Positions 1 to 51,649 are shown, counted from the whole stretch's first letter. The stretch: DNA of 51,649 nt, filler included, from Cladosporium halotolerans (GCF_011745625.1; 2 parts of 2 records of this genome joined end to end with filler, not necessarily neighbours in it), one strand, 5' to 3'. Program-made: numbers and translations. The notes: a model not told the origin generated them from the sequence alone.

Positions 1-53
1 AAGCTAGATAGCTTGCATACAATATGATTCCAAAAAAAAAAAAAAAAAAAAAA
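1..53 (+). mobile_element. 3' terminus and poly(A) tail of a LINE inserted into the gag-like ORF that follows
   Basis: AAGCTAGATAGCTTGCATACAATATGAT is followed by A22 (32-53). The same terminal motif (24/28 identical) plus an A-run recurs at 5663-5705. Confidence 0.6.
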
Positions 54-1062
54 GGAAGTCCCAGGCCTAATAGCTACAGCGAAGTCCTTGCGGGCGGAGC
101 CACGTCCATGGGCTCACAGACCTCCCAGACCGGGTCAACATCAGCAGGCAGTTTCCAAATCCCTAAGGAGAAACCACAGGTGCAAGATGAGCGAGCAGTG
201 TCGGTCGACATGGGCAGATTCAAGGGAGCGAAGAACAATTACAACGGTATCAGAGATGGCCTGCGCGACGGGCTCAAGGTCAAGAAGGTCACGGAAAAGC
301 TGGCGATCAGATGTATACGGCCTGGCCCGGGCGACAGAATCGACGTAGTTTTCGCCGACAAGGAAGAAGCCAACAAGGCAAAGCAGCACACTCGCTGGCT
401 GACGTCGAGCCTTAGCGGCGCTCGCTTCAAAGGTGAGCAGTGGTATCCGGTGAAGTTCGACAGTGTCGTGAAGTAATGTGTACTGGACCAGGAAGCCAAC
501 GACGGTAAGACGCTAAAAACGGACTTTGCGAAGGACTTTTAAGGCGGTCAATAGCTGCGAGACGGCAGAATGTACGGTGGTGAAGGGCACGTGGCTCAGT
601 AAGGTTGACGCAAAGAAGAAGGTAGGATCGATGGTGGGTTGGCTGAAGAACAGAGTCGATGCAGACTACCTGCTGCGAACAGGCACAGCTATGTTTGGCG
701 CGATCAACGCGTTCTGCTCACCTTTCATCGTTACAGACAACAGTGGTCCGTGCTATCACTGCAACAGGTACGGACACAAGCAGGCGTCGTGCACCAGCCA
801 GATCAGATGCGCTATCTGCTCGAAAGGTCACCGTCAAGACGAGTGCACGAACAAGGACATTCCCAAGTGCCCGGCGTGCGGCGACGCGCACACGGTATTC
901 GACTGGGCATGTAAACTGCATCCACAGCACTACCGACATGTTGGGCAACAGAAGTCCAGGACAAGGCAGGAGCAGCGCAGTGTGGCCATGGAAATCGACG
1001 TGGATGGTATTGCGCAGGAAAGCCCGACTAGCTCATCGAGTACCAGTGGCGGGCGCACGTAA
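54..1062 (+). pseudogene. Tad1-like LINE ORF1 (gag-like) remnant with three Cys/His knuckles
   Basis: Knuckles CYHCNRYGHKQASC, CAICSKGHRQDEC and CPACGDAHTVFDWAC. In-frame TAA at 474-476 (the frame reads on as CVLDQEANDGK) and a frameshift near 540. Confidence 0.85.
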
Positions 1063-1102
1063 CGAGCACAGCGAGCACGTTGAACACACCTAGCGCTACT
1101 TC

Positions 1103-1490
1103 ATGCTAGGGGAGTTCAAAGTGCTACACGTGAACATCGGCAAGCGAAAAACGGCGCACTGGAGTTTGTTCTGCGATGAGAGCTTGGCAGATTTTGACGC
1201 TCTCTCAGTGGTTGAACCGTACATCTTCGAAGATATGGATACTGGTGAGACGGCGTTTCCAGTCGAGCGGAACTGACAGTTATTCAAGCCAAGTACGAAA
1301 CAGGAAGGAGAGGCGCGGTATGCATATCGAGCGGCCGTATGGGTGAACAAGAGACACGCCGCACAGCAAGTCGCTGTACCTTCCAGTGATGTGGTGGCGG
1401 TGACGATTCCCACAAAGCACGGCGCCGCACTGATAGTCTCTGCCTACGATGTGAAGTCCACGGATGGCCAAGCGGCAAACGAAGAGCGGC
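1103..1490 (+). pseudogene. Tad1-like LINE ORF2 N-terminal AP-endonuclease fragment, 3'-truncated
   Basis: MLGEFKVLHVNIGKRK...DALSVVEPYIF...RAAVWVNKRH...VPSSDVVAV...LIVSAY. In-frame TGA at 1274-1276. Similarity ends near 1490. Confidence 0.8.
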
Positions 1491-1824
1491 CCCGAAAAAT
1501 CTTTGAGACGTTCTTGGCGCTACCCGCTCGGAGGCTGGCCGTGCTGAACAGTTTGTCATATCCAAATCATGGAGCGAATTATCGTTCCGCTCACCGTGTA
1601 TCCGGCTTGCGTTGCATATCACAACTCAAAAGAGATCGTGAAGTTGACCCCGCAACTCAAACTCCGGCCGTTCATCATAATGATGCAAGCCCGCCGCAGA
1701 GATCCCACCCCTCATCCCTCCAAATGTCGATGCATTAATGCGACCAAACCTGTGCGAATGGTATGCATCTTTTTATCATGCACTCGGAGTGAAGTTGCTC
1801 AGCAGTCCAACCGCACGCCCGAAA

Positions 1825-4800
1825 ATGTCCTTTGAACCTAGACGGAGCCGGGATTCCATCGAGGACATCTGGGGTCCTCGGACGCCTTATAAACACGAAT
1901 GGCCGACGAGAGTTGATAAGAATTTGATCGAGGAGCCAGAGAAATGGGTGCAAAGTGCTTGCGTTTTGTGCAGGTCAGTCCACAATTTCTAGATTCTTTG
2001 ACGAGAGTAGCCCGCTCACCTATACTTCTCTAGCAATGGTTGTGGGCTAGATATTGGAGTCAAAGCTGGCAAGGTTGTCGGAGTGCGAGGGCGTGCGACG
2101 GACCGCGTCAACAAAGGCCGACTTGGTCCCAAAGGGCTCAATGGGTAGGACTACCAAGCCACATTCCTCTCCGTATTCCTATGTTCACAGATACAGATGG
2201 ACGGCAATGAGCTCCACAGATCGCCTCACCCAACCACTCATTCGCACGAACGGAGAGCTACAAAAAGCGTCATGGGATGAGGCGATGAATGCGATTGTTG
2301 CAAAGGCCCAGGCTATCAGGAAGGAGCTCACCGCTCATGGCATTGCCTTCTATACCTCGGGTCAGCTGTTCCTCGAAGAATATTACGCGCTCGCACTTGT
2401 TGGCAAGGCCGGTTTGAACACGTTGCATATGTTCGCAACAACATTCCCCAAGCAGCAATGAGGTCGTTGCTAACAAGCAAAGGGATGGAAACACTCGTCT
2501 TTGCACCGCGACAGCAGCAGCCTCGATGCGCGAATCGTTTGGGTCTGATGGCCAACCGGGCTCGTACACCGATATCGACTATACTGACTGCATCCTCATG
2601 GTTGGGCATAACATGGCCGCTACGCAAACTGTCCTGTGGTCACGGGTTCTAGATCGGTTGGCTGGACCGGATCCGCCGAAGCTCATTGTTATCGACTCGA
2701 GGACGTCAGCATCAGCGCGGAGGGCGACCCTTCACCTTGCACCCAAAATCGGCACCAACATGGCGATTCTGAACGGTATTCAGCATTTGCTCTTCGAGAA
2801 TGGGTGGATCAACGAAACCTTTATCGATAAACACGTTGTCGGCTTGAATGAACTTCGCAGCACTGTCAAATCGTACGACCCACACCGTGTCGAGGAGATC
2901 ACCGGTATTCCAGCAGTTCAAATCGTAGAGGCAGCTGAAATCATCGGAACGACAAAGTCCCTTCTTTCGACAGCCTTACAAGGCGTATATCAATCACATC
3001 AGGCTACTGCCAGTGCATGCCAAATTAACAACATCAATCTTCTTCGGGGTTTGATAGGCAAGCCTGGAAGCGGCATCTTTCAAATGAACGGGCAACCCAC
3101 AGCACAGAACAACCGTGAAGCTGGCTGCGATGGCGAGTACCCCGGATTTCGCAACTACAACAATCCATCGCATATGGCCGAGCTTGCTGATCTCTGGGAT
3201 ATCGAGCGACACAAACTTCCGCACTGGAATCAGCCCACGCACATAGAGAACCTCCTCAAATACATCGCCGCGGGCTCGATCGAGATGTTCTGGATCTCTG
3301 GCACGAACCCGTTAGTCAGCTTACCGAATCTGCCTAGAGTAAGGGAGCTACTCACCAAGCCGAGCCTTTTTGTCGTTTGCCAGGATATCTTCATGACAGA
3401 GAGCGCTGCGATTGCTGACGTAGTGCTACCCGCTGCGCAGTGGGGTGAGAAGACTGGGTGTTTTACGAATGTTGATCGGACAGTGCACATCTCTCATAAG
3501 GCCGTTGAACCTCCTGGAGAGGCAAAACCGGATTTGGAAATCTTTGTCGACTTTGCCAGGCGAATGGACTTTCGCGACAAAGGGGGTAACCCGATACTCC
3601 CGTCAGCTGACCCCAAAGTCGTCTTCGAAGCATGGAAGAAGGTTTCGGAATTCAGACCTTGTGATTACAGCGGTTTGACTTACGAGAAATTAACGGGTGG
3701 TTCTGGGATTCAATGGCCATGCAATGACGCGCACCCCAATGGCAAAGAACGGCTATACGACGATGGAATCTTCTTCACGGATATTGAGTACTGCGAGAGT
3801 TTTGGCCATGACCTTGAAACCGGCGTCCCGTATACTAAAGAGCAGTACAGGGCCCTTAATCCCGCCGGAAGGGCCATCTTGAAGGCAGCAGAATATACAC
3901 CTTCACCGGAACTGCCAGATCAAGAGTACCCTTTACGTCTTTCGACCGGCCGCAGTGTCTACCATTTTCACACACGCACCAAGACCGGACGGTCAAAGAC
4001 GTTACAGGAGAAATGCCCAGAGCCTTGGATAGGAATCTCGGCTGAAGATGCAGAGGCAGTGAATGTTCGGGATGGGGACGAGGTTGTTGTGAGATCTAGA
4101 AGAGGGGCTATCCAGTTGAAAGCCTCAGTAGGGAATGTGTCAAAGGGAGAAACGTTCATACCGTTTCATTTTGGATATTGGGATGCAACGGATGGAAGAT
4201 CAAGAGCAGCGAATGAGCTTACTACCGGTTGGTTACTCGCATTTTGAAATCGCTTTGCATGATTGTAATTCGCTGACGGCAACAGAGTATTGGGATCCAG
4301 TATCCAAACAGCCTCTGTTCAAATCTGGAGCTGTTCGTATCGAGAGATGCACGGGGACACATATTATTCAGGCGGAGGAGACCCAATCAGACACCGTCGC
4401 CAAAGTGGCGAAATCGAAGCTCAATGCTACGGAAGTTGGCGATAACTCTCCTAGAGAGCGTCATCTGGAGCAATGGCTGGGTGCGACGTTCCAAGCACTC
4501 AGGTTGCTCGAGAAGATGTACGAGAAACTGGTACCGAAGCTAATTCACGATCCTGAGGCCAACAGCGGCTTGCGCGTGATGCGTCGGATCACGGCGGAGG
4601 CCATCAATACGATGGAGCCGTACGTCAGGAAATACAATGCAGAATCACTAAAGGGAAAGAGCTCTTTTCGAGCCGTCCACGACGCAGTGTTTCCTTCAAC
4701 GGAAACGACGACTGCTTACGAATCTCTGGTGGCGCTGAAAGGTCTATATACTTGCTTAGCGGATATAGAAGCGCACTTCATTGCCTTGATACCAGCTAGC

Positions 4801-4953
4801 CAGGCATTGTGGGATGCAGGTTTCCATGGTGCGATGGCGGGCGTGAAGAAAGACGTGGAGAGGATGCAGGCGTGGGCGAAGCACCAACTCCACGTGAGGA
4901 GTCCGCAGACGCTCTTGGTGCCGTCGAAGGATCTATGGGACGACTTGAGCTGA
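1825..4953 (+). CDS. DMSO-reductase-family molybdopterin oxidoreductase (NasA/NapA nitrate-reductase-like), 5 exons, ~968 aa, with an extra C-terminal helical domain
   Basis: Exons 1825-1973, 2034-2144, 2197-2430, 2483-4227 and 4286-4953 (GT..AG introns) join into one open frame. Motifs: CVLCSNGCG, GRLGPKG, SWDEAM, SGQLFLEEYY, Mo-ligand DGNTRLCTATA, ADVVLPAAQWGEKTGCFTNVDR, dinucleotide-binding LSTGRSVYHFHTRTKT, FIPFHFG, DPVSKQPLFK. Confidence 0.92.
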
Positions 4954-5364
4954 GTCTATCCACCTATACTCTCGCGCACTTCGGTAGCGGCAATATTACC
5001 CTTTTGCAATCACACTGTGCTTAAGCTGCCCAGCTTATGACAGGTCTATGTGATGGAACCTAGATAATTTCCTGGACTCGAGTCTGTAATCCTACTTTCT
5101 CAAGCCACCACGGCGACGCCCGTCACGGCGTGACCCGGCTCCAGCTGCAGGTACCGCGCTGACTCTCTCTCTCTCCCCCCCCCCCCTACCCCGCGTCGTT
5201 AGTGTGTTTGTTGAGTTTCGGTGAGTGCTGCCATTTCGCTTTTACGTATCGCTTGTACGAGGGCGACGTCGATCACGCCTCTCGGGGCTGCTGCTTTGTC
5301 CCTTGTCTCGCTACAGCCTCGGCCATCCCGTTTCGCTCACTTTTTCACCGGGAAGCGGACAACA

Positions 5365-5705
5365 TGTGACCTGTTAGCCTTGAGCTCGAAGCTGGAGACA
5401 GGCGACATGGATAAGACAGCGCGCACCTTCAGCACTGAGGTGACTAGCCTTTAGTGCGTAATAGGGCAAGGTGAGGGGAGGGAGACTTGGGGAGAAGGGT
5501 CAGTAGTTGTTTCCACGCAAGAGCCAATAGGAAGGCGCTGAGCTCGAAAGCTGTGGCTTCTTAACCAGGTCGGAATGGCGAGCAGGGTTGAAGGCATGGA
5601 ACCAATGCAAGAGCATAGATAGAAAACCACGAGTTTGACTAGGAGATAGACAGGCTTGCCATAAGCTGAATAGCTCGTATACAATATGATGACCAATGAA
5701 AAAAA
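5365..5705 (+). mobile_element. 5'-truncated LINE 3'-UTR fragment with a short A-tail
   Basis: Purine-rich tract ending AAGCTGAATAGCTCGTATACAATATGAT (5663-5690) plus A7, matching the motif at 1-28. The 5' boundary is approximate. Confidence 0.5.
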
Positions 5706-6262
5706 GAGCCCTGCAGAGCCGGGAGCTGGCGAGTCGGGGGTCGTAACAGACGTCCTGAGTGGTGATTGTCGCACGTGTTCGTTTTCCTGGAGCCTGGACT
5801 CCCCACATAGCACAGCTAGAGCAGCGGACAGACAGCACGATGCTGTTATCGTTGCAATGTGTAAAGAGCAGTTGCAGATGGGGGATATGAATTTAGTGGT
5901 TGCTTCACCGCCTGGCTCGCTATTCCACAGTCAAAATTATACCTGTTTTTCTTCAAGAAGCAGGTGAAAGCCGCATTTAGTGAGACGGTGCTAACCAACG
6001 GCCACGTTCAGTTGGATGTAGTGAGCAATAATCTCAGTTTGGTGGATGGCGCAAGCATGACGTACGTTATACCTTCTGTAGGTAACCCCGCACCGCTACT
6101 GGTGTCGGCAAAATGAAAATCCCCTCCGCGCGTCGTGGTTGTCGCCAAACCGACAAAGTAGTGAAACCGTGAGCTGGATATTCTGCTTTGCTCTGAACTG
6201 ACCAGCATTGCGAAATTGTGCAATAATCAGACGACTTATTGCATTACAATCTCGCCATCTGG

Positions 6263-6913
6263 ATGGTTCGGGAACACGGTTTTCCGTTCAAGCCACTGCT
6301 TCTCATGGGCGGCAAATCGACCAGGATGGGCGAACCAAAACATCTCTTGGTGACGCCTAGTGGGAAAACGATGCTTCAACATAGCTTCGAAATACTCAAT
6401 GAGCTATGTCCGGCATCGAAGGTTTACATCTCTTTGGCGCAAGAGACGCCTATTGATCCCTTTCTACGCAGTAAGCAAGACGTCGCTGAATGCATACTCG
6501 ATGTGGAGCGAAACTGTACGGTGGCATCTGCAGGACCAGCTGCCGGGTTGCTGGCTGCGTTCCGGTCCGACCCAAAAGCCACCTGGCTGGTGGTGGCCTG
6601 CGACTACCCTCTCCTCACCACAGATGTACTGCGACAGCTTTGCGGATCATATGTTCCGCCAGTGACTTGTTTCAAAAACATGGATGGGTTCTACGAGCCG
6701 CTGATAGGCATATGGAGCTCCTCGGCGCTTGCAATGTTGGCCGACAACGTCGCAGCTGGGATGGACAGTCCGACCACCGTCATTAGACAATTGGATGGCT
6801 TGGCTATAGCCCCTCCACAAGATCACGAAGACTGGCTGTTGAACGTGAACACGAGGAAAGATTGGGATCGCGCGGTGAGCTTGTTGCGACAAGGGTATGG
6901 AAGGTGCAGTTGA
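6263..6913 (+). CDS. mobA: Molybdenum cofactor guanylyltransferase (MobA-like NTP transferase), intronless, 216 aa
   Basis: LLMGGKSTRMGEPKHLL, AGPAAGLLAAF, WLVVACDYPLL, EPLIGIWS and LLNVNT are MobA signature motifs in the correct order. Confidence 0.9.
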   Translation: MVREHGFPFKPLLLMGGKSTRMGEPKHLLVTPSGKTMLQHSFEILNELCPASKVYISLAQETPIDPFLRSKQDVAECILDVERNCTVASAGPAAGLLAAFRSDPKATWLVVACDYPLLTTDVLRQLCGSYVPPVTCFKNMDGFYEPLIGIWSSSALAMLADNVAAGMDSPTTVIRQLDGLAIAPPQDHEDWLLNVNTRKDWDRAVSLLRQGYGRCS

Positions 6914-6929
6914 GATGTCTGCTTATAAT

Positions 6930-8270
6930 CTATGACACGGTCCATGTATAGCAATCTACAACGCTGCCCTCAACGACCTCAGAGCCCGCATGTACATGAA
7001 CCCAGCAATTAGCAGCAATGAAAGGCTGAAGTTTCGCTGGATTGACCCGCCCGCTAAACAGTACAGCATTTGTTCCCCAAGCTGTCGGCTGGAGGCGTCC
7101 AGTGAAGAAGCCATCAACCTCCCGTTTTGGTACGATTATGTGCTGCGATTCTTTATCCTCTCCAGTCCCCGGTCTCTCCCTAGCGGCTTTCGCGGCGATA
7201 GGTCGCTCAGCTTCCCGGCCTTGTAGTCGGCGGAGATAAGGAATGATTAAAAACCTGAAACATGCCGCCACTGCTCCAGGATTACCAGGAAGCCCGAAAA
7301 ATGCCACGGGCTTCTTTGCTAGGAATCGCGCGAAAAGCACAGGATGGCCGGGGCGAATGTTTAACCCATGGAATGCGACACCGGCGTTAGAATCATCCAG
7401 GGCATCTCGAACAAAATCGAATTTCCCTGCAGAAACTGCGCCACTAGTGATGAGGATATCATAATCACCTGACTTAGCATGAGCCTCAAATGCACTGCGC
7501 AAAAGCTGTGCTCGGTCGTCTAAGTGGCCTAGAAATGCGACCTCGGCACCGTATTCACGGCAAGCTGCTTTCAGATATGGACCGTTGACGTCCTTCGAAT
7601 GAGAACCTTCAGAAATAAATTCCTTCCCTGTTGACCAGATGCCAATTCGAGGCTTTGCTGCGACGCGTATGGTTTTAAACCCAAGTGACGCAAGCGGCAA
7701 TATGTGCGAGGTCATAATCCGCTGGCCGCTCTTTAAGAGTGCTTCCGACTGTTGTATGTCGCTGCCTGCCCTTCGACGATTTGCCCATGGTTCGACTGGC
7801 TTTGTCACAGCAATACATTGTTGTGGTTGATCGAGCCCCGCCCTATCGGACGCTATCACGGACACATTTTCGACTCTGACGCAGGCGTTTAGTCGACCCA
7901 GTGCGCTGTTAACATCCGGAAATCGTGCTCCAGTCATGATTTCTATGCATTGATATTTTCCGTCTGCTTTTTTCTTTTCCGGAATGAGAGAAGGGTCGTC
8001 GCCGGGGGTGAGCATACCGACAACTTCAAATACCGCAGGGTTACTCGGAGAGGCGTTATCAGTAGCGCAGGCCTCGATAGCGTAGCCATCCATCGCTGAG
8101 GTATCATGTATTGGAGTGGAAGTTGGGCTGACACAATCTTCCAGGACTATTCGTCCTACAGCGTCATGTATATCGATACATTGTGTAGCCCCGTCGTCAT
8201 CCTCATAAGCCTTGGCATGGTCTGCAGCCGCCTGTAGTCTTTCAATGGCCGCAGTGAACGATAATACCAT
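6930..8270 (-). CDS. moeA: Molybdopterin molybdenumtransferase (MoeA / gephyrin E domain only), intronless, 446 aa
   Basis: AVGRIVLED, SAMDGYA, IMTGA, STGKE, DVNGPYL, ITSGAVSAGKFDFVRDAL, RPGHP, FFGLPGNP. No MogA/G domain is present. Confidence 0.92.
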   Translation of the reverse strand: MVLSFTAAIERLQAAADHAKAYEDDDGATQCIDIHDAVGRIVLEDCVSPTSTPIHDTSAMDGYAIEACATDNASPSNPAVFEVVGMLTPGDDPSLIPEKKKADGKYQCIEIMTGARFPDVNSALGRLNACVRVENVSVIASDRAGLDQPQQCIAVTKPVEPWANRRRAGSDIQQSEALLKSGQRIMTSHILPLASLGFKTIRVAAKPRIGIWSTGKEFISEGSHSKDVNGPYLKAACREYGAEVAFLGHLDDRAQLLRSAFEAHAKSGDYDILITSGAVSAGKFDFVRDALDDSNAGVAFHGLNIRPGHPVLFARFLAKKPVAFFGLPGNPGAVAACFRFLIIPYLRRLQGREAERPIAAKAARERPGTGEDKESQHIIVPKREVDGFFTGRLQPTAWGTNAVLFSGRVNPAKLQPFIAANCWVHVHAGSEVVEGSVVDCYTWTVS

Positions 8271-8353
8271 GTTTCAAGGTTTGTCAGAATGTGATGTTGC
8301 TCAGACGGAGGCATTTGCTTCCGGGGCAAGTAGTGCCAAACGCTGCCAGTTGG

Positions 8354-8361
8354 TGACGTCA
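8354..8361. promoter_or_regulatory. Palindromic CRE (ATF/CREB-type) site TGACGTCA upstream of moeA
   Basis: Exact TGACGTCA 83 bp upstream of the moeA ATG. Function is not shown by the sequence. Confidence 0.35.
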
Positions 8362-8890
8362 TGAGGCCGTCGATTGTTTGCGGAGCCGGGTTCAACAGAC
8401 TACCAAAGCAGCAGTCGCAGAGCGAAATGAACCGAGACTAGCCCATGCAGAGAGTTCGCGAGGCCTTGTGGTGGCCGGAAAAGCAGCCTGTCTTAGACAT
8501 AGACACGGCAATGATCTCGTCCTGGGCGAAGATGCGAAAAGGTCCCGCCGCCGCGACGCGCTCGCGCGGTGAAGCCGGCTGGATGCAGCGCAACAACGAC
8601 CTCAGCTACAAGAACCATCTAGCACATCCATCTACCTCACTCTCACTGGGGTATCGGAACGGCAGCTCAGAGAGGTGTCGCCTGTCGATGATTTCCGCAT
8701 CTCTTGCTAGATGGCGCGCTTCGGCAGATGTAAGAGTCATCAACTCCGGGAACGAGCTGACCAGGAGCAACAGAACGAACGGCCATGAACAAAGTCAAGA
8801 AACACATCACAAACCAGGGGTACTGGCGTAAGAAAACCATCCGGCCCTTGCCTACCCAGAACGTCGACCTGTGCCCGAAGCCGGCGCATC

Positions 8891-9290
8891 ACTTGTTACC
8901 CCTGGCAGCTGCTCGCACAGCTGCTTGAAAGAGACGGATGGGGACAGGGACACTGTTAAGACAACAAGGCCGGCGGATGTGCAATCGAGCTAGACAAGAG
9001 ACAGGACACCCCTGGGGACAGGACACCCCTGGCCTACAAGCGCTCTTTGATCAGCACCGTATGTGCAGTTGGCTGGCGTCCTGGCGAGGGCCGCTGACTT
9101 GCGCCGCGTTGCGGTGTAGAAGCCGCACTTGAAAGCGAGGGGACCCGGCCACCGTTGAGAGAACTTGTTAAGACACGACCTTTGTGCTCCTTCTTTTGGA
9201 GACAGACCACCGCTTGCCGGATCTGTTAAGACACGGAGGGTGTGCCCTTTTTTTAGGGACATGGCCCCTCCGCGGCGAACTTGTTAAAAC
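8891..9290 (+). repeat. Dispersed TGTTAAGACA-like motif array plus a 16-bp tandem duplication
   Basis: TGTTAAGACA at 8954, 9166 and 9224; TGTTAAAAC at 9282; ACTTGTTA at 8891; GACAGGACACCCCTGG at 9000 and 9017. Confidence 0.7.
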
Positions 9291-20254: not shown

Positions 20255-21997
20255 CCACCCTTCATCCGAAGGTTTGTTCGCAGTCCGTGCCCCCACCAAA
20301 ATTGGCTTGGCAGATGGACATGGCTACAAGCCTTTGATGATAAACTCAATATTGAATGAATGAGGCTATATTTTCAATGGTATACAGGATTTGAGGTGTT
20401 GTTACTGCCTCCTAGGTCTCTTCTGCCTACTATCTCTATGAATATTGACATCATCATTGATTAGATTACTCCCTAGGCTTGCCTTAACCCTCAAGGCAAG
20501 CCTCTTATATGTAGCTCTTGATACCCTACCAATAACAGCCTCATCAAAGTCATGAGATTGCCAAGTATCCTTCATGACCTGTTTGGCTTGATCCCTTGTA
20601 CGCTTCTGCTTATTAGTGACTGAGAACATGAAGGGCTGTATCCTTCTTTGATGCTCCCATTGAAGAGTCTTAATCGGTGCAGTATCTGGTGAATTAGCAG
20701 GGTGCTTCAAGAAGCGGATACCCCTTTGTGTAATCTCACCCTGTAGTAACTTCCGAGCTTTGGTGTGAGGTGGTGTATTATCCTCCTGAATGAAGACCTC
20801 TTTACCAGGATTATTATCTTTCAGAGCCTGCCAGTAGGGGAAGAGTAGGTCCCTATAGATCCTAAAGGCATAGAATACATAATCTATGGCCTTATTATCC
20901 TCATTCAGCTTGAACTCCTGGATAGGATAGATCTGCTCTGGTATTGGTGGTGGTATTGGCTGTATTCCATTGGCCTGTTGCCAGGCCTGCTGTATAGACC
21001 ATTGCTGTACTGCATCCAGATAGACCTGATGCTCAAGGGTCCCTGGTACTTTGCATTGCTCCTGTAGATACTTGGTATATGCCTTAGCCTTCTCATTGGC
21101 AATGTGTAGATCCTGAGCATCCTGAAGGGTCAATTCAGGAGCCTTTGTATCCCATTGTAAGCAGGGCCTTTGAATACTGCAGTCATCACCACAGGCTGCT
21201 GCCCACTGTTCAATCTTAAACCTATAGCTATTCCTATAGCCATAAGAAGGGACCCCTCGTGGTGCAGATGCCCTATAATTGGCAGTGCCTCCATGGTAGT
21301 AAGGCTTCTCATCTGTACAGATAATGAGGCCTTCCAGTTGATCAACCTGCTCCAATTCACCAAGATAATCCCACCTCTGATTGAGCTGGCCTTGAGATTG
21401 CTTGTTTCTATTGATCTGTCTCTTCCTAGTAGTTGGCCTTTGCTCCTGGGGGTCCTGTTCACAATGAGCAGAGTCCTGAAGGATATGATAGACCTGTTGG
21501 TTACCAAGAGGCCTATTAGGTGAGATCTGACCTAGGGCAACACGGTCCTGAATAGCCTGGTTTGCAGCCTGTTGTATTGGCTGTACTTCATATTCCTGTA
21601 CACCAGCTCTCACAGCCTGAGAAAGAGAGGATCCAGGAGGTGCTCGCTGTCGCCTGCCAGATCTTGGCTGTATTGCTACTGCGTGCATAAGGGCATCGAG
21701 GTCCTGTGTTTGAGAACAGCGTGATTTCGCTCTCTTTAGGAGCTGTTCAATAGCTTTGGGGCCAAGATTCAGCTTCCTTGCAATCTCGGCTTGTTTCATC
21801 CCCAATATCTCAGAAAAGGCAATTGTGACATAACGCTTCCAAAGAGGTATCTCAGGGCCTCTTGGCATCTTGATTTGAACTGAATTGGATGAACATTGGT
21901 GGTGTAATCAATTATTGAAGTGAGAGGGTCGATCGAGATAACCCCGGCGGAGCTGCGGGAGTTGCCGCATGCGAACATACCTTCGGATGGGCGGTGG
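20255..21997 (-). mobile_element. Tc1/IS630-like DNA transposon with imperfect TIRs
   Basis: CCACCCTTCATCCGAAGGTTTGTTCGCA (20255-20282) matches the reverse complement of 21970-21997 at 24/28 positions. The pair brackets the transposase ORF. Exact ends are uncertain. Confidence 0.75.
20402..21868 (-). CDS. Tc1/IS630-family (DDE_3-like) transposase, 488 aa
   Basis: N-terminal HTH GMKQAEIARKLNL, IICTDEK, IQEDNTPPH, HPANSPDTAPIK (canonical SPDLNPIE). Confidence 0.8.
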   Translation of the reverse strand: MPRGPEIPLWKRYVTIAFSEILGMKQAEIARKLNLGPKAIEQLLKRAKSRCSQTQDLDALMHAVAIQPRSGRRQRAPPGSSLSQAVRAGVQEYEVQPIQQAANQAIQDRVALGQISPNRPLGNQQVYHILQDSAHCEQDPQEQRPTTRKRQINRNKQSQGQLNQRWDYLGELEQVDQLEGLIICTDEKPYYHGGTANYRASAPRGVPSYGYRNSYRFKIEQWAAACGDDCSIQRPCLQWDTKAPELTLQDAQDLHIANEKAKAYTKYLQEQCKVPGTLEHQVYLDAVQQWSIQQAWQQANGIQPIPPPIPEQIYPIQEFKLNEDNKAIDYVFYAFRIYRDLLFPYWQALKDNNPGKEVFIQEDNTPPHTKARKLLQGEITQRGIRFLKHPANSPDTAPIKTLQWEHQRRIQPFMFSVTNKQKRTRDQAKQVMKDTWQSHDFDEAVIGRVSRATYKRLALRVKASLGSNLINDDVNIHRDSRQKRPRRQ

Positions 21998-45499: not shown

Positions 45500-45670
45500 T
45501 GTTACGAATATGGGTTTAGGCAGCCTAAGGCTACTAAGCTCTAGGACGCGGTTGAGACTGCTTAGCGCGACATCCTCGATAATGATACTGAACACGCTCG
45601 AGTCACGTGACAAGTGCTTAGTGATTAGTATGCTCAGCGGTACCAAGTATACTGATCATATGATACCAAA
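45500..45670 (+). mobile_element. Possible partial LTR (solo-LTR fragment)
   Basis: Begins TGTTACGAATATGGG, like many fungal Ty3/gypsy LTR 5' ends, and contains GTCACGTGAC. It is interrupted by the LINE fragment. No second copy is present in the window. Confidence 0.3.
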
Positions 45671-47570
45671 CAAGCTATAGAAACGGAATGGGGAAGCATA
45701 GCGCCGAAATCAACGTGCAAATACCTAGGTGTAATGATGAACAAGAAATTGGATTGGAAGGCACATGTCGAAGAAATCAAACGGAGGGTCACAAAGTCAA
45801 TCAACTGCCTGGCCTCCCTAGGTAGCTCGACGTGGTGCATACGCTTACCGGACATGCGGAAGCTCTACGATGGAGTGGTCATACCGCAGATTATGTATGC
45901 ATGCTCAGCTTGGTCCAACTCAAGAGGGGCCGGCATCCCGTACACAAGGAAAACGCTTCAGATCCTCCAGAGCTTACAAGCACGAGGAGCTAGAACCATT
46001 TGCGGAGCGTTCAAGGCGACGTCCAGAGCCGCTCTAGATGTTGAGGCTCACCTGATTCCCGTTGTACAGCAAATAGAGAGGCACAACACATATGCCTTGG
46101 GCCGTACGATGTCGTGTCAGACGATCCCAGACCTCGCAGACGTTTCGAGGGATGAGTCCAACGACAACGTGCCCAGGGCTATGTACCTCAGCCCGCTACG
46201 TAACATTCGCTCCCGATGCAAAGGTAGACTGTCGACTAGCATCCATCCCCCAGAACCAATAGTGCCCTTCGTTGCGCCGCCGTGGTGGGAAGGGCCCGCC
46301 ACGCACATAGAGCCGGAGACAGATGCCTGTTCTACACACGATACTGAGATTACGAGGGGAGATATCTGCATCTACACAGACGGCAGTTGCATCAGTGGCC
46401 ATGTTGACGCAGCAGCAATATACCCTGAGAAGGGAAGGATAAGAGATGCATACATGGGGACAGACGCAACGTCAACAGTCTACGCCGCGGAGCTGCAGGG
46501 CATTAACCTCGCATTAATGATAGCGAAAGAAGAGACCAACGCAGGTGCGGTACAGCGGTGTATCCATGTCTTCGCCGACAATCAGGCCGCGCTTCGTTCC
46601 CTGACCAGGCCAGAAGGGAGGTCTGGGTCGTACATTCTCAAGCAGATTGTCGAGAGAATCGGTGCGCTTCAGAAAGCGGACACGAAGTAACAGTGCGATG
46701 GATACCTTCGCATAAGGGAATAGAGGGGAATGAAGCTGCCGACGTAGCCGCAAAGAAAGCGACAGGATGGAGGGAAGGCTCCGCGTCCGAACCAAGAGCC
46801 ACTCCTCCCCAAAGAGCTGTATTCACTCCATGCCCCGCTTAAGTTAAGGAGCCGGAAACAGACGAACGAAAACTGGCAGACCGAGTGGCAAAACGAAACG
46901 AGAGGCAGAGCCTCTTTCAGATATGCGCCGGTACCATCGGAAAAGGTATTGTAACTACACCGGGGCCTAAGTAAACGGCAAAGCGCCATCCTGGTGCAGC
47001 TGAGAACCGAGAAAGTAGGACTTCGCGACTTCTTACTCCGTCGGAAAGTGCCCGGAATCATGGACCCAATGTGCGACTGTCGGGAAGGCCGCCAGACGGT
47101 ACGACACGTCCTCTTAACGTGCAGGAAGCCCCGGGACCTCCGGAAGCAGGAAATTGGCCATTTGCCGGAACGCAACAATCTTCGGGTGATCCTCAGCAAG
47201 CGCAAAGCAGCCATCAAAGCCATCAATTTCATAGAACGTTCGCAGATCCTAGGGCAAAGCAGGGTCGAAGAGGAGTAGACGACGCCGAGCATTGGGGGAA
47301 GACTGTAGGTACGCAGACAGCGGAAGACAGGGATATCGACCACATAGCGATCATAGGGCGTGAGCCACCGTCTGCGAAGGCTGGCAGGCAATTGGAGACG
47401 GAGGCTGAAGAGAAGAAGGGAGGGTGATGGAGGCAGCTGGTCCAGCTGGTATCTAGGTGTCAGGCTGGGCGAAGTGGGGCGGCCCGCACGGGACGCGTCG
47501 GCTGTCTGCTGAGATGATGATGAACTTTATTCCGCCCGGCGCTAAGCACCTAAAGGGCAACACACTATTT
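45671..47570 (+). mobile_element. 5'-truncated Tad1-like LINE (RT thumb, RNase H, CCHC, 3' UTR), defective
   Basis: KYLGVMMNKKLDW, IMYACSAW, ICGAFKAT, IYTDGS, TVYAAELQGI, FADNQAAL, WIPSHKGIEGNEAADVAAK, QLRTEKVGL, CDCREGRQTVRHVLLTC. Frameshifts at ~46680-46840 and a TAA near 46952. Confidence 0.9.
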
Positions 47571-50500
47571 ACGTCCAAAAGTTTACATCTGGCTCGAAGA
47601 GGTTGAAACAAACACAGTTCCCAAACTCATTGTCCTTCACCATGAAGTCGACTTGACGTTATATATCCCTCTCACTCTCGAATGCTCGTGATTGCTGGTT
47701 GGCGGGTGTTCTTGAAGCTGTGTTTCCAAGTGTTCATCGTCCTATCTTCAGCAGATGAAGCGGGGGCCTGCCGTGTGCACGAGGGTGCGTGATTGGTGTG
47801 CGGAGTATATGGTTAGTAGGGTACGGGTTGTTGGGTCGTCGCTGACAGTCTTCTACCTCGCCGTTCGCCTCTGCGTGCTGGTGTCTCGTTCGAATCGTTT
47901 AGTGGCCAGAGTGAAATGAATCACGGCTCGCACTGCACCCATGTCAGGTGCCCAGTCGTCGATATCTGTCATGCCTTTACCTCCAAGCAGGCGCGGCAGG
48001 TCCTCGTCGTCTGCCCATACGCCCAAAATCTTCCGCTGCTCGCTCCACTTGACACAGTGAAAGATGAAGTGCTCTCTCGACTCGACTGCCTCACCACATT
48101 CGCAGAGATTCGTTTCCACTGCTTTGATGTTGTGCAAATACCCGTTCAGTGGTGTCATCCCTGTGCGGAGCTGCGCGAGGACACTCGCTTGTCTTTTGCT
48201 GAGCTCGTCGTACATGCGCCGAGTGTGACTGCCAGGCCACCCAGCGTCGATTCTGCGCACTGCGACCCCGACCATCGTCGGCATTTGCGCAGTCGTTTGC
48301 GCCAGGCGTTGTTGGGCCTTCAGAACAATCCGCTTGGTCAGTCTGGGTCGGTCACCGGCCACTCGTCCTTTGTCGGTGGACCGCTTCGCGAGCTGTTTCG
48401 CTCTTTGCCCGAGCTCGAAGATAGAGTTAACTGGAGCCCACGCAAATACTACGCGGATGCCGAACCCTTTCAGGAACTCTATATGTTTCAGAATCCCACC
48501 GATGATCCATTGCCTGGTCCGTTTGGGGAAAGCCCTCAAAGTGATCAGGACGGTACGGTTGTTGGTGAACACGCGCACGGTGTGGCCGTGTACTCGCGCC
48601 GATAAAGTCCCCTCGTACACCGCGCCGACAACAAAAGCAAGTCCCGCCTCGATCGAGGCCAGAGCGGCTGTGTAGGCGTCACTTTGCCCGATGGTGCCTA
48701 ACGTCTTGTCGTACTCGTGCCGCGCAGTGTGGTTTCTAACTCGATCTATGCTCTCGACCGCGCCGCCGATGCCGACCAGCTGGTTCCTGACCGACGCGCT
48801 GGTGGCGATGCGTATACCATGCGTCTCTTGAGATCGTGCGGCCGCCTGCAGTCCGTCGTCTGTGCCGTCGACTGTGTCGGGTCGCGCGTTCCATGGAGTA
48901 GAGATGTAAGGTTGTGTCGCCTCCAAGTCATCTAAAGGTGCACCCTGGCTGTACTCTGCGATCTTCTGCATAGGTGACACGAACCTTTTGCACGCCAGAC
49001 GTCTAGCTATCAGCGCGAGAGGGTGCGTGCCCGGCATGCTGCGGAGGTCGATCCACATCTTCAAGGCTTTTCGCTTGTGCCGTTCCTCTATCGTGGGCAG
49101 GTCTGCTTCTGCCTCTGCCACCGCTGTGCCGACCGTCTGGAAGCATCCGATCACTGCCTGTCCGCCGATCCTTTGCACTCGCTTGAGCACTCTCTCTGTA
49201 CTAGCCCTCCTGGCGTGCGTCCACACCGAGGATGCGTAGTCGACCACAGGAGCCACTGTCGCGTTGAACAGCTTGCGCGTCACTGACGGCGAGAGTCCTC
49301 GCAGCCGCTTCAGCGCCATGGCTGCCTGCAGTCCCTTCGTCGCAGCGCGGGCCGCGTGTTCTTGGTAGCGCAGTCGTGAGTCCATCACCAAGCCCAGGAT
49401 CTTGACGCTGGGCGTGGGCCGTATCTCCTCCCCTTTGACGCTGATCGGTTCTTCTGCGGACTGATGAGTGTTGTTCCTCGTGAAGTGGATGAAAGCGGTC
49501 TTGTCTCCTTCAAAGGACGCCCCGCTTCTGCTCTCCCATTCGGTCGCTCGTTGTACGATAGCCTGAAGCCGATCGATGTTCTCCGCGGCGGTCTTGCCCA
49601 CGACCCACGCGGTATAATCGTCCACGAAAGCGATCGCCCCACCGTTCCGGTCGATTCTTTGCTGCACAAGATCTGCGTTGAAGAAGAGAAACAAGATCGG
49701 AGACAAAGGGGAGCCTTGCGGCAGCCCAGCTTGTTCGAGTGCTCTCACACCCGATGCCTGGCCGTTCACCACAATCGTGGCCGTGCGTTCGGAGCAGAAG
49801 GCGTCGATCCACTTCACCAGGTCTGAGGGGATGCCCCTGGCCTGGAGCCGCTGCAACAGTCTGTCTTTGTAGACCCCGTTGTACGCCCCTTTCACATCGA
49901 AACTGACCAGGCTCACCACTCTCTTGTTCCTCCAAGCTGTGTAAATGTGCTCCTGGAGGAGCAGTAGTGCCTGCTCCGCCGATCTCTGCTTCCTAGCGCC
50001 AAAGTGGTTGGCTGGCAGCAGGCCGTAGGTCTCGACCGCAAATGAGATCCTCTCCGCGACGACTGCCTCCAGTAGTTTTCCCAGCGTCGACAGCAGTGAG
50101 ATGGGCCTCCACGCCTTCGCCAGGGTGTAGTCACCCTTGTTGGGCTTCTTGAGCGGGATAATCTTTGCGACTTTCCATTGCTGAGGGATCACGCCAGTGT
50201 CGAGGGACGTTTGAAACAGGCGGCGGACACTCTCACTCACGGCCGGCCATATTTGTCTCCACACTCCTGCTGGGAGGCCGTCTTCGCCCGCAGCCTTCCA
50301 CGGCTTGGTCTTCATAAGGCAGCACTCGATCTCTTCCACGGTCAGCTCCGGCATGGGGACGGGCTGCCTTTGTGGTCGGTCTCCCTCGTCCGCTATGGCC
50401 TCGGGTAGTGGTGGGAAGAAGGTAGCAAGCAGTTGTTCGGCTTGCTCGGAGTTGTTCGTCGTCATTGACCCGTCCGCCTTTTGTAGCGGTGGGATCTTTG

Positions 50501-51649
50501 ACCACCCCGAGCCATCGTCGGGCTTGAGGTAGCGGGTGGCCTTCCAGATGTTGGTTTCATCCGCCAGGAACTCATCCCAGTGCAGTCTTTGCTGCTTGCG
50601 TATCGCATCGTGGTACTCCTTCGCTGCCGCTCGCGCTTGTTGCTCTAGCTCCGAGAGTGCTTCTCCGGCTCGTCTTTGCGCACGCGCCCTGTTTCTCCAG
50701 TACGTGTATACCCGGCGGAGCTTCGTGAGGTCCTGCGTCCACCACCGCTTCGCATACGGTGAGGGCTTGGCTTTGGGCGTCAGCGTGCTGATCGCGTCCA
50801 GTACAACCTGCATCAGACGGTCGGCCTGTCTCTGGACGTCGCCACACGCTGGTCGATCCTGTAACGCTTGAGCAATGCGCTCTCGGATTGCCTTCCAGGG
50901 GGCACTTTTGAACAACAACCGCGGTTGAGTAGCATGATCTGGGGCGTCCACATCAAAGGACGTCTCAATCGCGCGATGATCTGAGCCGTGCTCCGTACCA
51001 TGTATCTTACACGTGAGAGCGCTCGACGCCAGCTCCTGCGACGCCAACATGAGGTCGATTGTCGTAGCGCGGGATGCGTTCTGCCACGTCTTCGTGCCGC
51101 GAGGCAGGAGGCTCTCGAGACTCCATCTGTTCATGAAGTCGATGATGGCGTCCGCCTCCCCTTGTCGGCTGGCCAGGACCTCATCTCCTCCCCACAGCTG
51201 GTCATGCCGATTGAAGTCGCCAGCTATCACAAGATCAAGTCGCGGGCCACCGCGGCGCTGCGACGTGCCTATTGCTTCGTCGAGCAGCATCACCGTCTCG
51301 CCCAACGCTGAAGCATTGCCCCCTTCCACGTACACCGACGCGAGCAGCACTGACCTATCCGGCAGTCGCAGCAGAACCACTGCGATGTCTGCCGATGGCA
51401 CATTCACCTGCTCACACTCGATATCCCTGCGCACCCACAACATGCTTCGCACCGCTCGACGCCCGTCGTGTCTTTGGCTCGGCAGAATGGCCGTCCAGCG
51501 CGGATGCCCCATCGGGCTCGTCCTCACCTTCCCATCCATCTAAAACGTACGGCTCGCTGATGGCGAGAGCCGTGTACTCCTTCAAGCCTGCGTCGTTCAT
51601 CACACTGTGTTGCACCTCTCTCCGTTTCTGCATGTTCAGTTGCAGGACT
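47571..51649 (-). mobile_element. Tad1-like LINE, ORF2 plus 3' UTR; 5' part lies beyond the window
   Basis: Carries the endonuclease-RT ORF at 47853-51649. Its 3' UTR faces the 3' UTR of the preceding LINE. The boundary is approximate. Confidence 0.9.
47853..51649 (-). CDS. LINE ORF2 polyprotein (AP endonuclease, reverse transcriptase, degenerate RNase H-like domain, CCHC) with one frameshift near 51541
   Basis: VLQLNMQK...ISEPYV (frameshift) AGDFNRHD, TIDL, HGSDH; KAAGEDG, WRPISLLS, FDVKGAYN, GLPQGSPLSPILF, AFVDD, KILGLVMD; QLRTGMTPLN, CECGEAVESREHFIFHC. 1228 aa are uninterrupted. Confidence 0.93.

Follow-up and report, generated by a model that had tools for sequence, protein, structure and literature searches.

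The three-gene locus

Near the start of a 51,649-nucleotide stretch of the Cladosporium halotolerans genome (assembly GCF_011745625.1; two parts joined with filler, hereafter "the window"), three intact genes lie side by side: one for an oxidoreductase that resembles bacterial molybdenum enzymes, a mobA-like gene and a moeA-like gene (Table 1). The gene models and Pfam domains bear out a preliminary description of this DNA, which had reported such a trio, and the positions at which it had placed the ends of the cluster, 1825 and 8270, proved to be the two outer start codons. Exon 4 of the oxidoreductase matches PF00384 (E = 2e-43) and PF01568 (E = 9e-22). The spliced model aligns over residues 8–961 with 968-residue proteins of Fusarium oxysporum at 67% identity; its nearest relatives are those of Cryomyces (78%) and Coniosporium (77%). 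The mobA- and moeA-like genes are convergent, with their stop codons 16 nucleotides apart.

Table 1. Features of the cluster, in window coordinates.
Feature	Position	Strand	Details
Oxidoreductase gene	1825–4953	+	five exons, 968 residues; ATG at 1825, stop at 4951–4953
Oxidoreductase exons	1825–1973, 2034–2144, 2197–2430, 2483–4227, 4286–4953	+	joined in frame
Fe–S motif Cys46-x2-Cys49-x3-Cys53	1960–2043	+	spans intron 1
Intron 1	1974–2033	+	60 nt, GT..AG; joint 1971>2032 (cut +2) in X6, X10, X16, X24
Intron 2	2145–2196	+	52 nt, GT..AG; joint 2143>2196 (cut +1) in X6, X10, X16
Intron 3	2431–2482	+	52 nt, GT..AG, CTAAC branch site; joint 2430>2483 in X6, X10, X16
Codon of Cys172, predicted Mo ligand	2502–2504	+	in DGNTRLCTATAAAS; aligns with Cys of NapA 'DGNPRLCMASA'
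Intron 4	4228–4285	+	58 nt, GT..AG; joint 4226>4285 (cut +1) in X6, X10 (2 contigs), X16
C-terminal ferritin-like helical domain (residues ~803–960)	4453–4926	+	homologous to a stand-alone bacterial protein of ~152 residues
mobA-like gene	6263–6913	+	intronless, 216 residues, PF12804 (E = 1e-22); predicted Mo-molybdopterin guanylyltransferase
moeA-like gene	6930–8270	-	intronless, 446 residues, PF03453 (E = 2e-30), PF00994 (E = 3e-27); predicted molybdenum insertase

The four oxidoreductase introns all have CTAAC-like branch sites. We examined their removal in contigs of four public sequencing runs, aligned to window positions 1700–8400 at 88% likeness. One run (X24) is a metatranscriptome on record; the RNA nature of the other three (X6, X10 and X16, from three studies) is a guess. 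In contigs of X6, X10 and X16, all four introns have been removed, with joints exactly as modelled, and X24 shows the removal of intron 1 only. The spliceosomal introns proposed earlier are thus present both as GT..AG models and as joints in spliced contigs. The mobA-like gene is covered by contigs of X6, X10 and X16, and the moeA-like gene by contigs of X10 and X16; none of the aligned contigs of the four runs has a joint inside either gene. Contigs of this kind carry no measure of expression level.

One X16 contig (record 8, window 1923–2355) retains introns 1 and 2 (24 differences, 9 gaps), beside a spliced contig; pre-mRNA, carried-over DNA and a diverged relative in the sample are all conceivable sources. 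Contigs of X10 and X16 have a loose end at 6239, with no relevant match elsewhere in the window, which probably reflects divergence of the 5' untranslated region in relatives. The intergenic stretch at about 5060–6179 is almost uncovered in the four runs and is not to be counted as a finding.

The oxidoreductase and its active site

Judged by its sequence, the oxidoreductase is a member of the Mo/W-bisPGD (DMSO-reductase) superfamily, in a family that has neither a characterized member nor a signal sequence, and it is not an orthologue of NapA or NasA. It had been introduced as "NasA/NapA-like". That resemblance stands at the level of the superfamily. Orthology does not: the scores lie far below the NCBIfam cut-offs, the fourth iron–sulfur cysteine is a glycine, a threonine follows the molybdenum-ligating cysteine, and there is no twin-arginine signal. 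The NCBIfam scoring covered exon 4 only, that is, 581 of about 770 catalytic residues. On this exon, the formate dehydrogenase alpha-subunit model (TIGR01591) gave 388 bits against a cut-off of 666, NasC 317 against 1100, haloarchaeal NasA 283 against 1000, and the two NapA models 235 and 218 against 904 and 931. Relatives of exon 4 among solved structures include the FdhF of a CO2 reductase (E = 8e-83), an F420 formate dehydrogenase and the NapA of D. desulfuricans (E = 2.7e-75); the arsenite oxidase AioA is detectable at E = 2e-18.

The best 120 relatives of exon 4 are 69–96% identical to it. Among these, the named ones all belong to Pezizomycotina (Fusarium, Colletotrichum, Aspergillus, Penicillium, Trichoderma, Pyricularia, Verticillium, Exophiala and Cryomyces among them), save one record from a metagenome-assembled genome (MAG) labelled Mucilaginibacter (P0058). 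Public labels on the fungal homologues read "nitrate reductase", "periplasmic nitrate reductase" or hypothetical protein.

Active-site positions were mapped by aligning a bacterial orthologue (L051) to D. desulfuricans NapA and carrying the positions over to the fungal sequences. The predicted molybdenum ligand, Cys172, falls in an invariant column (C168 of alignment A4), and an arginine equivalent to NapA Arg354 is conserved in the aligned fungal sequences. Two other positions have changed: NapA Met141 is replaced by threonine (Thr173, directly after the ligating cysteine) and Met308 by glutamine. Near the N terminus, the three cysteines of the iron–sulfur motif are present, and the position of the fourth ligand ("GLLCLKG" in NapA) is occupied by Gly81 in "GRLGPKG". 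The same glycine-type position recurs in 40 of 40 fungal and other best matches that have C-x2-C-x3-C. None of 66 bacterial open reading frames (ORFs) has the fourth cysteine; the three-cysteine motif is found in 25 of them and is absent from 35, and RLCT[AS]T occurs in 63.

In a large actinobacterial subclade (Mycobacterium, Nocardia, Streptomyces and Micromonospora; e.g., L004, L010, L014, L027, L039 and L065), all three iron–sulfur cysteines are replaced ("SAAVLHSNGDG") and the molybdenum-ligating cysteine is kept, so that electron flow through the cluster may be non-essential. To our knowledge, no cysteine-ligated enzyme of this superfamily without the proximal cluster has been described.

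A twin-arginine signal, as such export signals are generally defined, was not found in the fungal protein; its N terminus has no hydrophobic stretch and is collinear from about residue 8 with the bacterial orthologues. These share its conserved N-terminal motif as their starting point and likewise lack a signal peptide. The shared start argues that the whole family is cytoplasmic.

A fused C-terminal domain

The C-terminal ~190 residues of the fungal enzyme are the fused counterpart of a small protein encoded just downstream of the bacterial orthologues. The preliminary description lacked this domain, which in most bacteria is a separate gene. Past the dinucleotide-binding domain, exon 5 matches nothing in Pfam or NCBIfam. 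When the profile of the fungal domain (A3) was compared with that of the small bacterial ORFs (A2) in hhalign, the probability of homology was 99.7% (E = 3.8e-27, 154 columns). A search of 1.84 billion representative proteins with the domain returned 149 matches only; 19 of these were scanned with Pfam, of which 14 contain Molydop_binding, with the matched region always after that domain, and the remaining five are short and without a Pfam domain.

Of the bacterial loci, 67 had a central gene with definable limits; in 51 of these, an ORF of ~152–160 codons lies directly downstream on the same strand (the grouping, by single linkage, picked up some unrelated ORFs as well, for instance the HPP genes of L003 and L079). 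No other neighbor family occurs in more than 10 of these loci, leaving the small ORF as the one widely conserved neighbor. The two genes are fused as in fungi in Mesorhizobium, Microvirga, a Hyphomicrobiaceae MAG and a Vicinamibacterales MAG. The fungal and the fused bacterial forms have a common "PQTL-VPS" ending, a sequence trait suggesting that the fungal fusion may have been inherited from fused bacterial forms. In a tree of the domain, by contrast, the fused bacterial forms fall among the small proteins of Bacteroidota; their grouping with the fungi was not rejected (p = 0.31 in the approximately unbiased test, p-AU).

What might such a domain do? In its ESM Atlas model, the small protein of Flavisolibacter looks like a ferritin-like bundle of the YciE/DUF892 kind (TM scores of 0.82 and 0.71), and the nearest ESM Atlas feature clusters of the fungal domain include DUF892. 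We take these results as leads toward a ferritin-like fold. The bacterial and fungal forms do not share a conserved set of the usual di-iron ligands, which is why we regard the domain as an accessory or docking module and not as a metal center.

The mobA- and moeA-like genes

The best NCBIfam models for the mobA product are all of MobA type, at 59–66 bits against cut-offs of 152–182; the top model, PRK14500 (MoaC/MobA), gave 90.6 bits against a cut-off of 606. The MocA model reached 28.7 bits, as opposed to 59–90 for the MobA models. All eight of its matches in the PDB are MobA proteins. In alignment with E. coli MobA, the G-G-x-x-x-R-M-G loop and the GP-x-x-G and CD-x-P motifs are present. 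In their fungal forms (L-x-G-G-x-S-x-R-M-G, GPAAG and ACDYP), the motifs are invariant or nearly so in 19 fungal homologues and were found in 101, 117 and 95 of 120 matches, respectively. There are 124 relatives of similar length at E <= 1e-3, and the named ones are all fungal.

The moeA product has clear MoeA_N and MoCF_biosynth domains and scores 203 bits on the NCBIfam MoeA model (cut-off, 440). Its PDB matches are MoeA, Cnx1E and gephyrin, and the named proteins among its best 120 relatives are likewise all fungal. The cluster products share Pfam domains with their respective counterparts, bacterial MobA and MoeA (E. coli; PDB 1FRW and 1G8L) and the Cnx1E/gephyrin E domain, and the mobA product also has the glycine-rich loop and CD-x-P of MobA. 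They differ from the bacterial proteins in being encoded in a nucleus, in an identity of only 24–35% and in scoring below the equivalog cut-offs. The core eukaryotic molybdenum insertase carries a fused G domain; the cluster MoeA stands alone. In five bacterial genomes that bear an orthologue of the oxidoreductase, MobA and MoeA are 29–35% identical to the fungal proteins and are encoded away from that orthologue. According to the available text of a review, MobAB has no eukaryotic counterpart (PMC9370521), from which a prokaryotic origin of the cluster mobA would follow.

Linkage of the three genes in fungi

Conserved linkage in other fungi, whose absence would have refuted the preliminary description, was found in many Pezizomycotina, both in locus tags and in metagenomes. 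In Thermocarpiscus australiensis, consecutive tags denote MobA (_6060), MoeA (_6061) and the oxidoreductase (_6062). Adjacent or next-but-one tags occur in Monosporascus (two strains), Fusarium sarcochroum, F. oxysporum, F. chlamydosporum, F. graminum, F. coffeatum, F. lateritium, Helicocarpus griseus, Chaetomium olivicolor and Corynascus sepedonium, which makes 12 species in all. Metagenome contigs scanned with a MobA alignment yielded 80 loci, 30 of which we took to be of eukaryote type: L114–L139 and L166 (at least 37% identity), plus L143, L144 and L148 (oxidoreductase 69–70% identical). The moeA gene accompanies mobA in 21 of the 30, nearly always tail-to-tail as in the window; the oxidoreductase is present in 16, all three genes in nine and at least one partner in 28. 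In both loci without a partner, mobA lies at the end of the contig. Many of these contigs are shorter than 3.5 kb and several are near-duplicates across samples, and the counts are thus not of independent events.

One of these loci, L130, has the gene order of the window, and its oxidoreductase pieces break at about residues 50, 87, 165 and 746. These are the same four protein positions, which indicates that the intron positions are shared. Another, L143:8893-14954, lies on a 1.4-Mb contig with mobA on the plus, moeA on the minus and the oxidoreductase on the plus strand; the last is an intron-free gene of 1012 codons that includes the C-terminal domain. Its product is 70% identical to the oxidoreductase of the window, whereas the MobA of this locus is only 30% identical. 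The genes for UPF3, Mre11 and BCCIP nearby point to an intron-poor eukaryote rather than a bacterium.

Bacterial orthologues and origin

A scan of prokaryotes, with one genome per species, yielded 591 relatives among 599 pattern matches, and we examined the best 80. In full-length comparison, these bacterial orthologues are 50–64% identical to the fungal enzyme from residue ~8 to ~767. They occur in Actinomycetota (Mycobacterium, Nocardia, Arthrobacter, Streptomyces and Micromonospora), Bacteroidota (Ferruginibacter, Flavisolibacter and Mucilaginibacter), Alphaproteobacteria, Acidobacteriota, Chloroflexota and Nitrospirota. A mobA or moeA gene stands beside the orthologue in two of the 80 loci (tblastn with fungal and bacterial MobA and MoeA queries). 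The near-absence of the cofactor genes from these neighborhoods argues that the three-gene linkage is a fungal assembly.

The bacterial neighborhoods are otherwise varied, with encapsulin (with or without DyP), HPP-family membrane proteins, a SLAC1-type channel, MFS transporters, a Rieske protein and a flavoprotein. Neither a nitrite reductase nor a recognized nitrate-assimilation operon was found in 10 + 5 loci scanned with Pfam (the five being from Pseudonocardiaceae and Streptomyces), and the nitrate-assimilation families nirBD and narK are not among the recurrent neighbors of the 67 loci. In the Mesorhizobium locus (L077:5590-10334) and that of the Vicinamibacterales MAG (L006:6647-10337), the fused enzyme is encoded directly downstream of an encapsulin shell gene, which in L077 is preceded by a DyP peroxidase gene. 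These two fused enzymes may be encapsulin cargo; no recognizable encapsulin targeting tail was seen in them.

Trees were rooted with two NasA-like paralogues of the same bacterial genomes (L109 and L110), a long-branch outgroup. In a FastTree analysis (92 rows, 768 columns), the fungal rows and two further relatives form one clade with a support of 94 (core, 98; a third such relative, P0503, was not placed), and all 62 bacterial rows form another (support 99). A quick IQ-TREE analysis of 44 rows gave the fungal clade, again with further relatives, an SH-aLRT (Shimodaira–Hasegawa-like approximate likelihood-ratio test) value of 99; the fungal, actinobacterial, Bacteroidota-like and fused alphaproteobacterial/acidobacterial groups meet in a polytomy. 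These sequence comparisons support one transfer of the oxidoreductase into fungi. They also place its origin in bacteria, as had been surmised, with a donor that is not nameable from the best 80 of the 591 relatives.

The closest bacterial orthologue among those 80 (63.6% identity) is that of a Bacteroidota MAG contig, L052:948-4504, where the order is oxidoreductase, small ferritin-like gene, mobA; this is one of the two loci of the 80 in which a cofactor gene neighbors the orthologue. We considered this mobA neighbor as a signal of the donor and rejected it, as its product is only 24% identical to the fungal MobA. Two records labelled bacterial, L001 (a "Ferrimicrobium" sp. MAG; 62–69% identical to exon 4 of the window) and the above-mentioned P0058 (a "Mucilaginibacter" sp. 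MAG; 74%), carry copies nested in the fungal clade, probably because fungal contigs were misbinned into bacterial genomes.

Cofactor supply and proposed mechanism

Enzymes of this superfamily bind two molecules of molybdopterin guanine dinucleotide (MGD), which is made by MobA. The argument of the preliminary description that an oxidoreductase of this type needs MobA is sound by this established biochemistry. Its picture of a self-contained module was overstated: MoeA and MobA act only on molybdopterin (MPT) or its adenylylated form (MPT-AMP) from the core pathway, and the cluster has no core-pathway gene for either. MPT and its adenylylation must therefore come from elsewhere in the cell.

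We propose that the locus is a fungal nuclear cluster for a cytosolic Mo-bisPGD oxidoreductase together with two late maturation enzymes that eukaryotes otherwise lack, or lack as stand-alone proteins. We put the probability of this reading, mechanism included, at about 0.7. The core fungal molybdenum cofactor pathway would supply MPT and MPT-AMP. The cluster MoeA would insert molybdenum, and the cluster MobA would assemble bis-Mo-MPT and add GMP, yielding bis-MGD. This would then be inserted into the oxidoreductase, where Cys172 would ligate the metal and the three-cysteine iron–sulfur cluster would relay electrons. The ferritin-like four-helix C-terminal domain would act as an accessory subunit. 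As to history, the oxidoreductase would have been acquired once, early in the filamentous ascomycetes or before, and would have gained its introns later; the linkage with mobA and moeA would have been built or kept in fungi, presumably because the enzyme is useless without the two. Synthesis of bis-MGD in a eukaryote is strongly implied by this set of genes.

Several observations weigh against the proposal. All three products score under the curated NCBIfam cut-offs (the oxidoreductase on exon 4). The fungal MobA is strongly diverged, with 24–35% identity to bacterial MobAs and E = 3e-6 to solved ones. MoeA_C is barely detectable in the moeA product (E = 0.22; in the homologue on L143, E = 1e-5). 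Solved archaeal, plant, E. coli and animal relatives of the cluster MoeA score alike (96–127 bits), and a bacterial origin is thus not told apart from descent from a host gephyrin-like copy. The splice joints prove RNA for the oxidoreductase, but the contig cover of mobA and moeA in X6, X10 and X16 could include DNA. The fourth iron–sulfur ligand is absent family-wide, 35 of the 66 bacterial ORFs lack the cysteine motif, and the three-gene cluster contains no electron-donor gene.

Could the two cofactor-type genes serve something other than bis-MGD? They might act in another nucleotide transfer or in scaffolding, with the oxidoreductase inactive or loaded with a nucleotide-free bis-pterin. The low equivalog scores and the divergence of MobA would fit, PF12804 is a broad nucleotidyltransferase family, and the available text of one paper describes a nucleotide-free bis-Mo-MPT enzyme in E. 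coli (PMC9103625). We nonetheless consider this improbable: the top-scoring models and all solved relatives are MobA and MoeA, the MobA motifs are conserved, and a tight, rearrangement-tolerant linkage of precisely these two genes with a dinucleotide-binding enzyme across fungi would be hard to explain otherwise. As for bacterial contamination or a dead relic of a transfer, one could point to the close bacterial orthologues and to the near-fungal copies in the records L001 and P0058. The position of both records inside the fungal clade makes them look misbinned, and intact frames persist across fungal classes. The four introns, the spliced contigs and the fungal surroundings of the cluster refute this explanation and uphold the earlier statement that the DNA is eukaryotic; the other recognizable ORFs of the window encode, by Pfam, a caleosin, a fungal-specific transcription factor domain, an F-box protein, a DUF3425 protein and the endonuclease/reverse transcriptase of a LINE-like (long interspersed nuclear element-like) retroelement.

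The substrate

Which reaction would the enzyme catalyze? D. desulfuricans NapA (PDB 2NAP/2JIM) belongs to the same fold family and has the same domain order (728 residues aligned with L051, E = 1.5e-119), and L051 keeps its first three iron–sulfur cysteines, its molybdenum ligand and Arg354. In contrast to NapA, the family has an extra conserved N-terminal segment of ~35 residues, several insertions and the ferritin-like partner or domain, and lacks a twin-arginine signal. NasA, NasC and NarB are likewise cytoplasmic and cysteine-ligated, with one N-terminal iron–sulfur cluster, but the fungal enzyme scores far under their cut-offs, none of the loci examined links its family to genes for nitrite reductase or a transporter, and the NasA-like paralogues fall outside its family as long-branch outgroups. 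FdhF-type formate dehydrogenases and CO2 reductases (PDB 7QV7 and 1AA6) are its best or equal-best relatives in sequence. Formate dehydrogenases generally need a histidine after the Cys or Sec ligand, whereas the fungal enzyme has Thr173 there, and 388 bits is well short of 666. With the distant AioA it shares a three-cysteine motif without the fourth cysteine. AioA, in which this motif holds a [3Fe-4S] cluster, is not known to have a protein ligand to molybdenum and is partnered by a Rieske subunit; the fungal enzyme keeps a cysteine ligand, and there is no Rieske gene in the cluster.

The best single guess from the sequence, and a tentative one, is reduction of an oxyanion such as nitrate, as the Nap/Nas-like cysteine ligand and the conserved active-site arginine would suggest. 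An equal claim can be made for another reaction, given that the fourth cysteine is missing, that an actinobacterial subclade has no cluster at all, that pocket residues are altered and that the genomic contexts are not those of nitrate use. Were the enzyme a genuine nitrate reductase, it would provide a second, Nas/Nap-like route from nitrate to nitrite, in assimilation or in fungal denitrification alongside NirK and P450nor. The retained ligand and arginine, the public names of the homologues and the high rank of D. desulfuricans NapA among solved relatives of both L051 and exon 4 speak for this, as do HPP-family genes, which we take to encode nitrite transporters, after the orthologue in two bacterial loci (L079 and L003). 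Fungal "napA" also correlates evolutionarily with nirK and p450nor in the available text of Higgins et al. (PMC6161760). Set against these points, the names are automatic, and formate dehydrogenases score equally well or better; all nitrate-reductase equivalog cut-offs are missed, and the signal and the four-cysteine cluster are lacking. The replacement of Met141 and Met308 and the lack of nirBD and narK beside the orthologues in the 10 + 5 scanned loci further count against nitrate. The same holds for the NirA site: CTCCGHGG, taken here as its consensus, is absent from the three promoters and from positions 1–8900 (the window as a whole has 7 against 5.7 expected, which is chance level). The available text of PMC6161760 itself states that many fungi make N2O only from nitrite and calls the role of napA "intriguing". 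On balance, a true nitrate reductase seems doubtful. A different reaction, be it oxidation of a substrate or reduction of an S-oxide, an N-oxide or another oxyanion, with a three-cysteine center and with the ferritin-like subunit helping to define the site or partner, is plausible, if short of an even chance. The fourth cysteine is missing throughout the family (0 of 40 fungal, 0 of 66 bacterial), and a high-potential [3Fe-4S] center would go well with three cysteines, the arrangement of arsenite oxidase. The molybdenum site persists in an entire subclade without the cluster; the family separates as a clade from the NasA-like paralogues found in the same genomes; and its conserved ferritin-like partner is not known from any characterized Nap, Nas or Fdh system, amid varied bacterial neighbors. 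Yet no positive evidence favors any particular alternative substrate, the cluster type is not readable from sequence, and where formate dehydrogenases have a Cys-His pair, this enzyme has Cys-Thr. We would go further only tentatively: filamentous fungi might make bis-MGD for a family of molybdoenzymes that would be the sixth in eukaryotes and would not reduce nitrate. Its members would be cytosolic and cysteine-ligated, would bear a fused ferritin-like subunit and a cluster held by three cysteines, possibly [3Fe-4S], and would carry out a new reaction.

Other features of the window

Pfam scanning of the window ORFs revealed no nitrite reductase or nitrate transporter gene. Just upstream of the cluster, positions 12–1062 hold two ORFs, one rich in lysine and the other with a zinc-knuckle motif of the CCHC type, CYHCNRYGHKQASC; the two look like the remnant of a retroelement gag, and neither has a Pfam match at E <= 0.001. 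The LINE-like element lies at 45656–51539, with a 1228-codon ORF on the minus strand (endonuclease PF14529 and reverse transcriptase PF00078); a second ORF nearby has a weak RNase H match, and G+C in this stretch rises to ~0.58–0.60. A 501-codon ORF on the minus strand at 20402–21907 has as its sole Pfam match a helix-turn-helix of the sigma-70 region 4 type (E = 4e-6), which is unusual in a fungal gene; it may encode a transposase-like DNA-binding protein.

Relation to earlier work and significance

The gene family is not new in fungi, as the preliminary description had it: "napA" was found in 75 of 712 fungal genomes by Higgins et al. (2018, Genome Biol Evol; PMC6161760, available text), and by names and taxa the family of the window oxidoreductase appears to be this napA. 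There the gene is treated as a periplasmic NapA; here it belongs to a cytosolic, non-Nap family. The main text of that paper has no occurrence of "mobA" or "molybd", and its available text makes no mention that we found of linked cofactor genes, a fused subunit, the missing cysteine or close non-Nap bacterial orthologues. Reviews hold that dinucleotide forms of the cofactor are found only in prokaryotes (PMC9370521, available text), and a comparative-genomics survey, as far as its available text goes, queried eukaryotes only with human SO, XO and mARC (PMC6147048). In a literature search that left subscription journals outside its scope, we found no paper on the linkage of mobA and moeA to the fungal enzyme or on the eukaryotic bis-MGD that it implies, and none on the fused ferritin-like subunit, the three-cysteine trait or the close bacterial orthologues.

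If our proposal is true, the statement of the reviews that eukaryotes use only Mo-MPT and have no MobA would be overturned, and the claim is directly testable through MGD in the fungus with and without mobA. The cluster would show how a eukaryote domesticated a bacterial enzyme whose cofactor it could not otherwise make, keeping the maturation genes physically linked to it. "Fungal napA" is in use as a marker of denitrification, so its relabelling as an uncharacterized family matters for surveys of nitrogen-cycle genes. The comparison also indicates a widespread bacterial two-gene system, a molybdenum enzyme with a ferritin-like partner. Because the bacterial orthologues, common in soil Actinomycetota and Bacteroidota, are uncharacterized as well, the reaction, if indeed a new one, would be new to both fungal and bacterial biochemistry.

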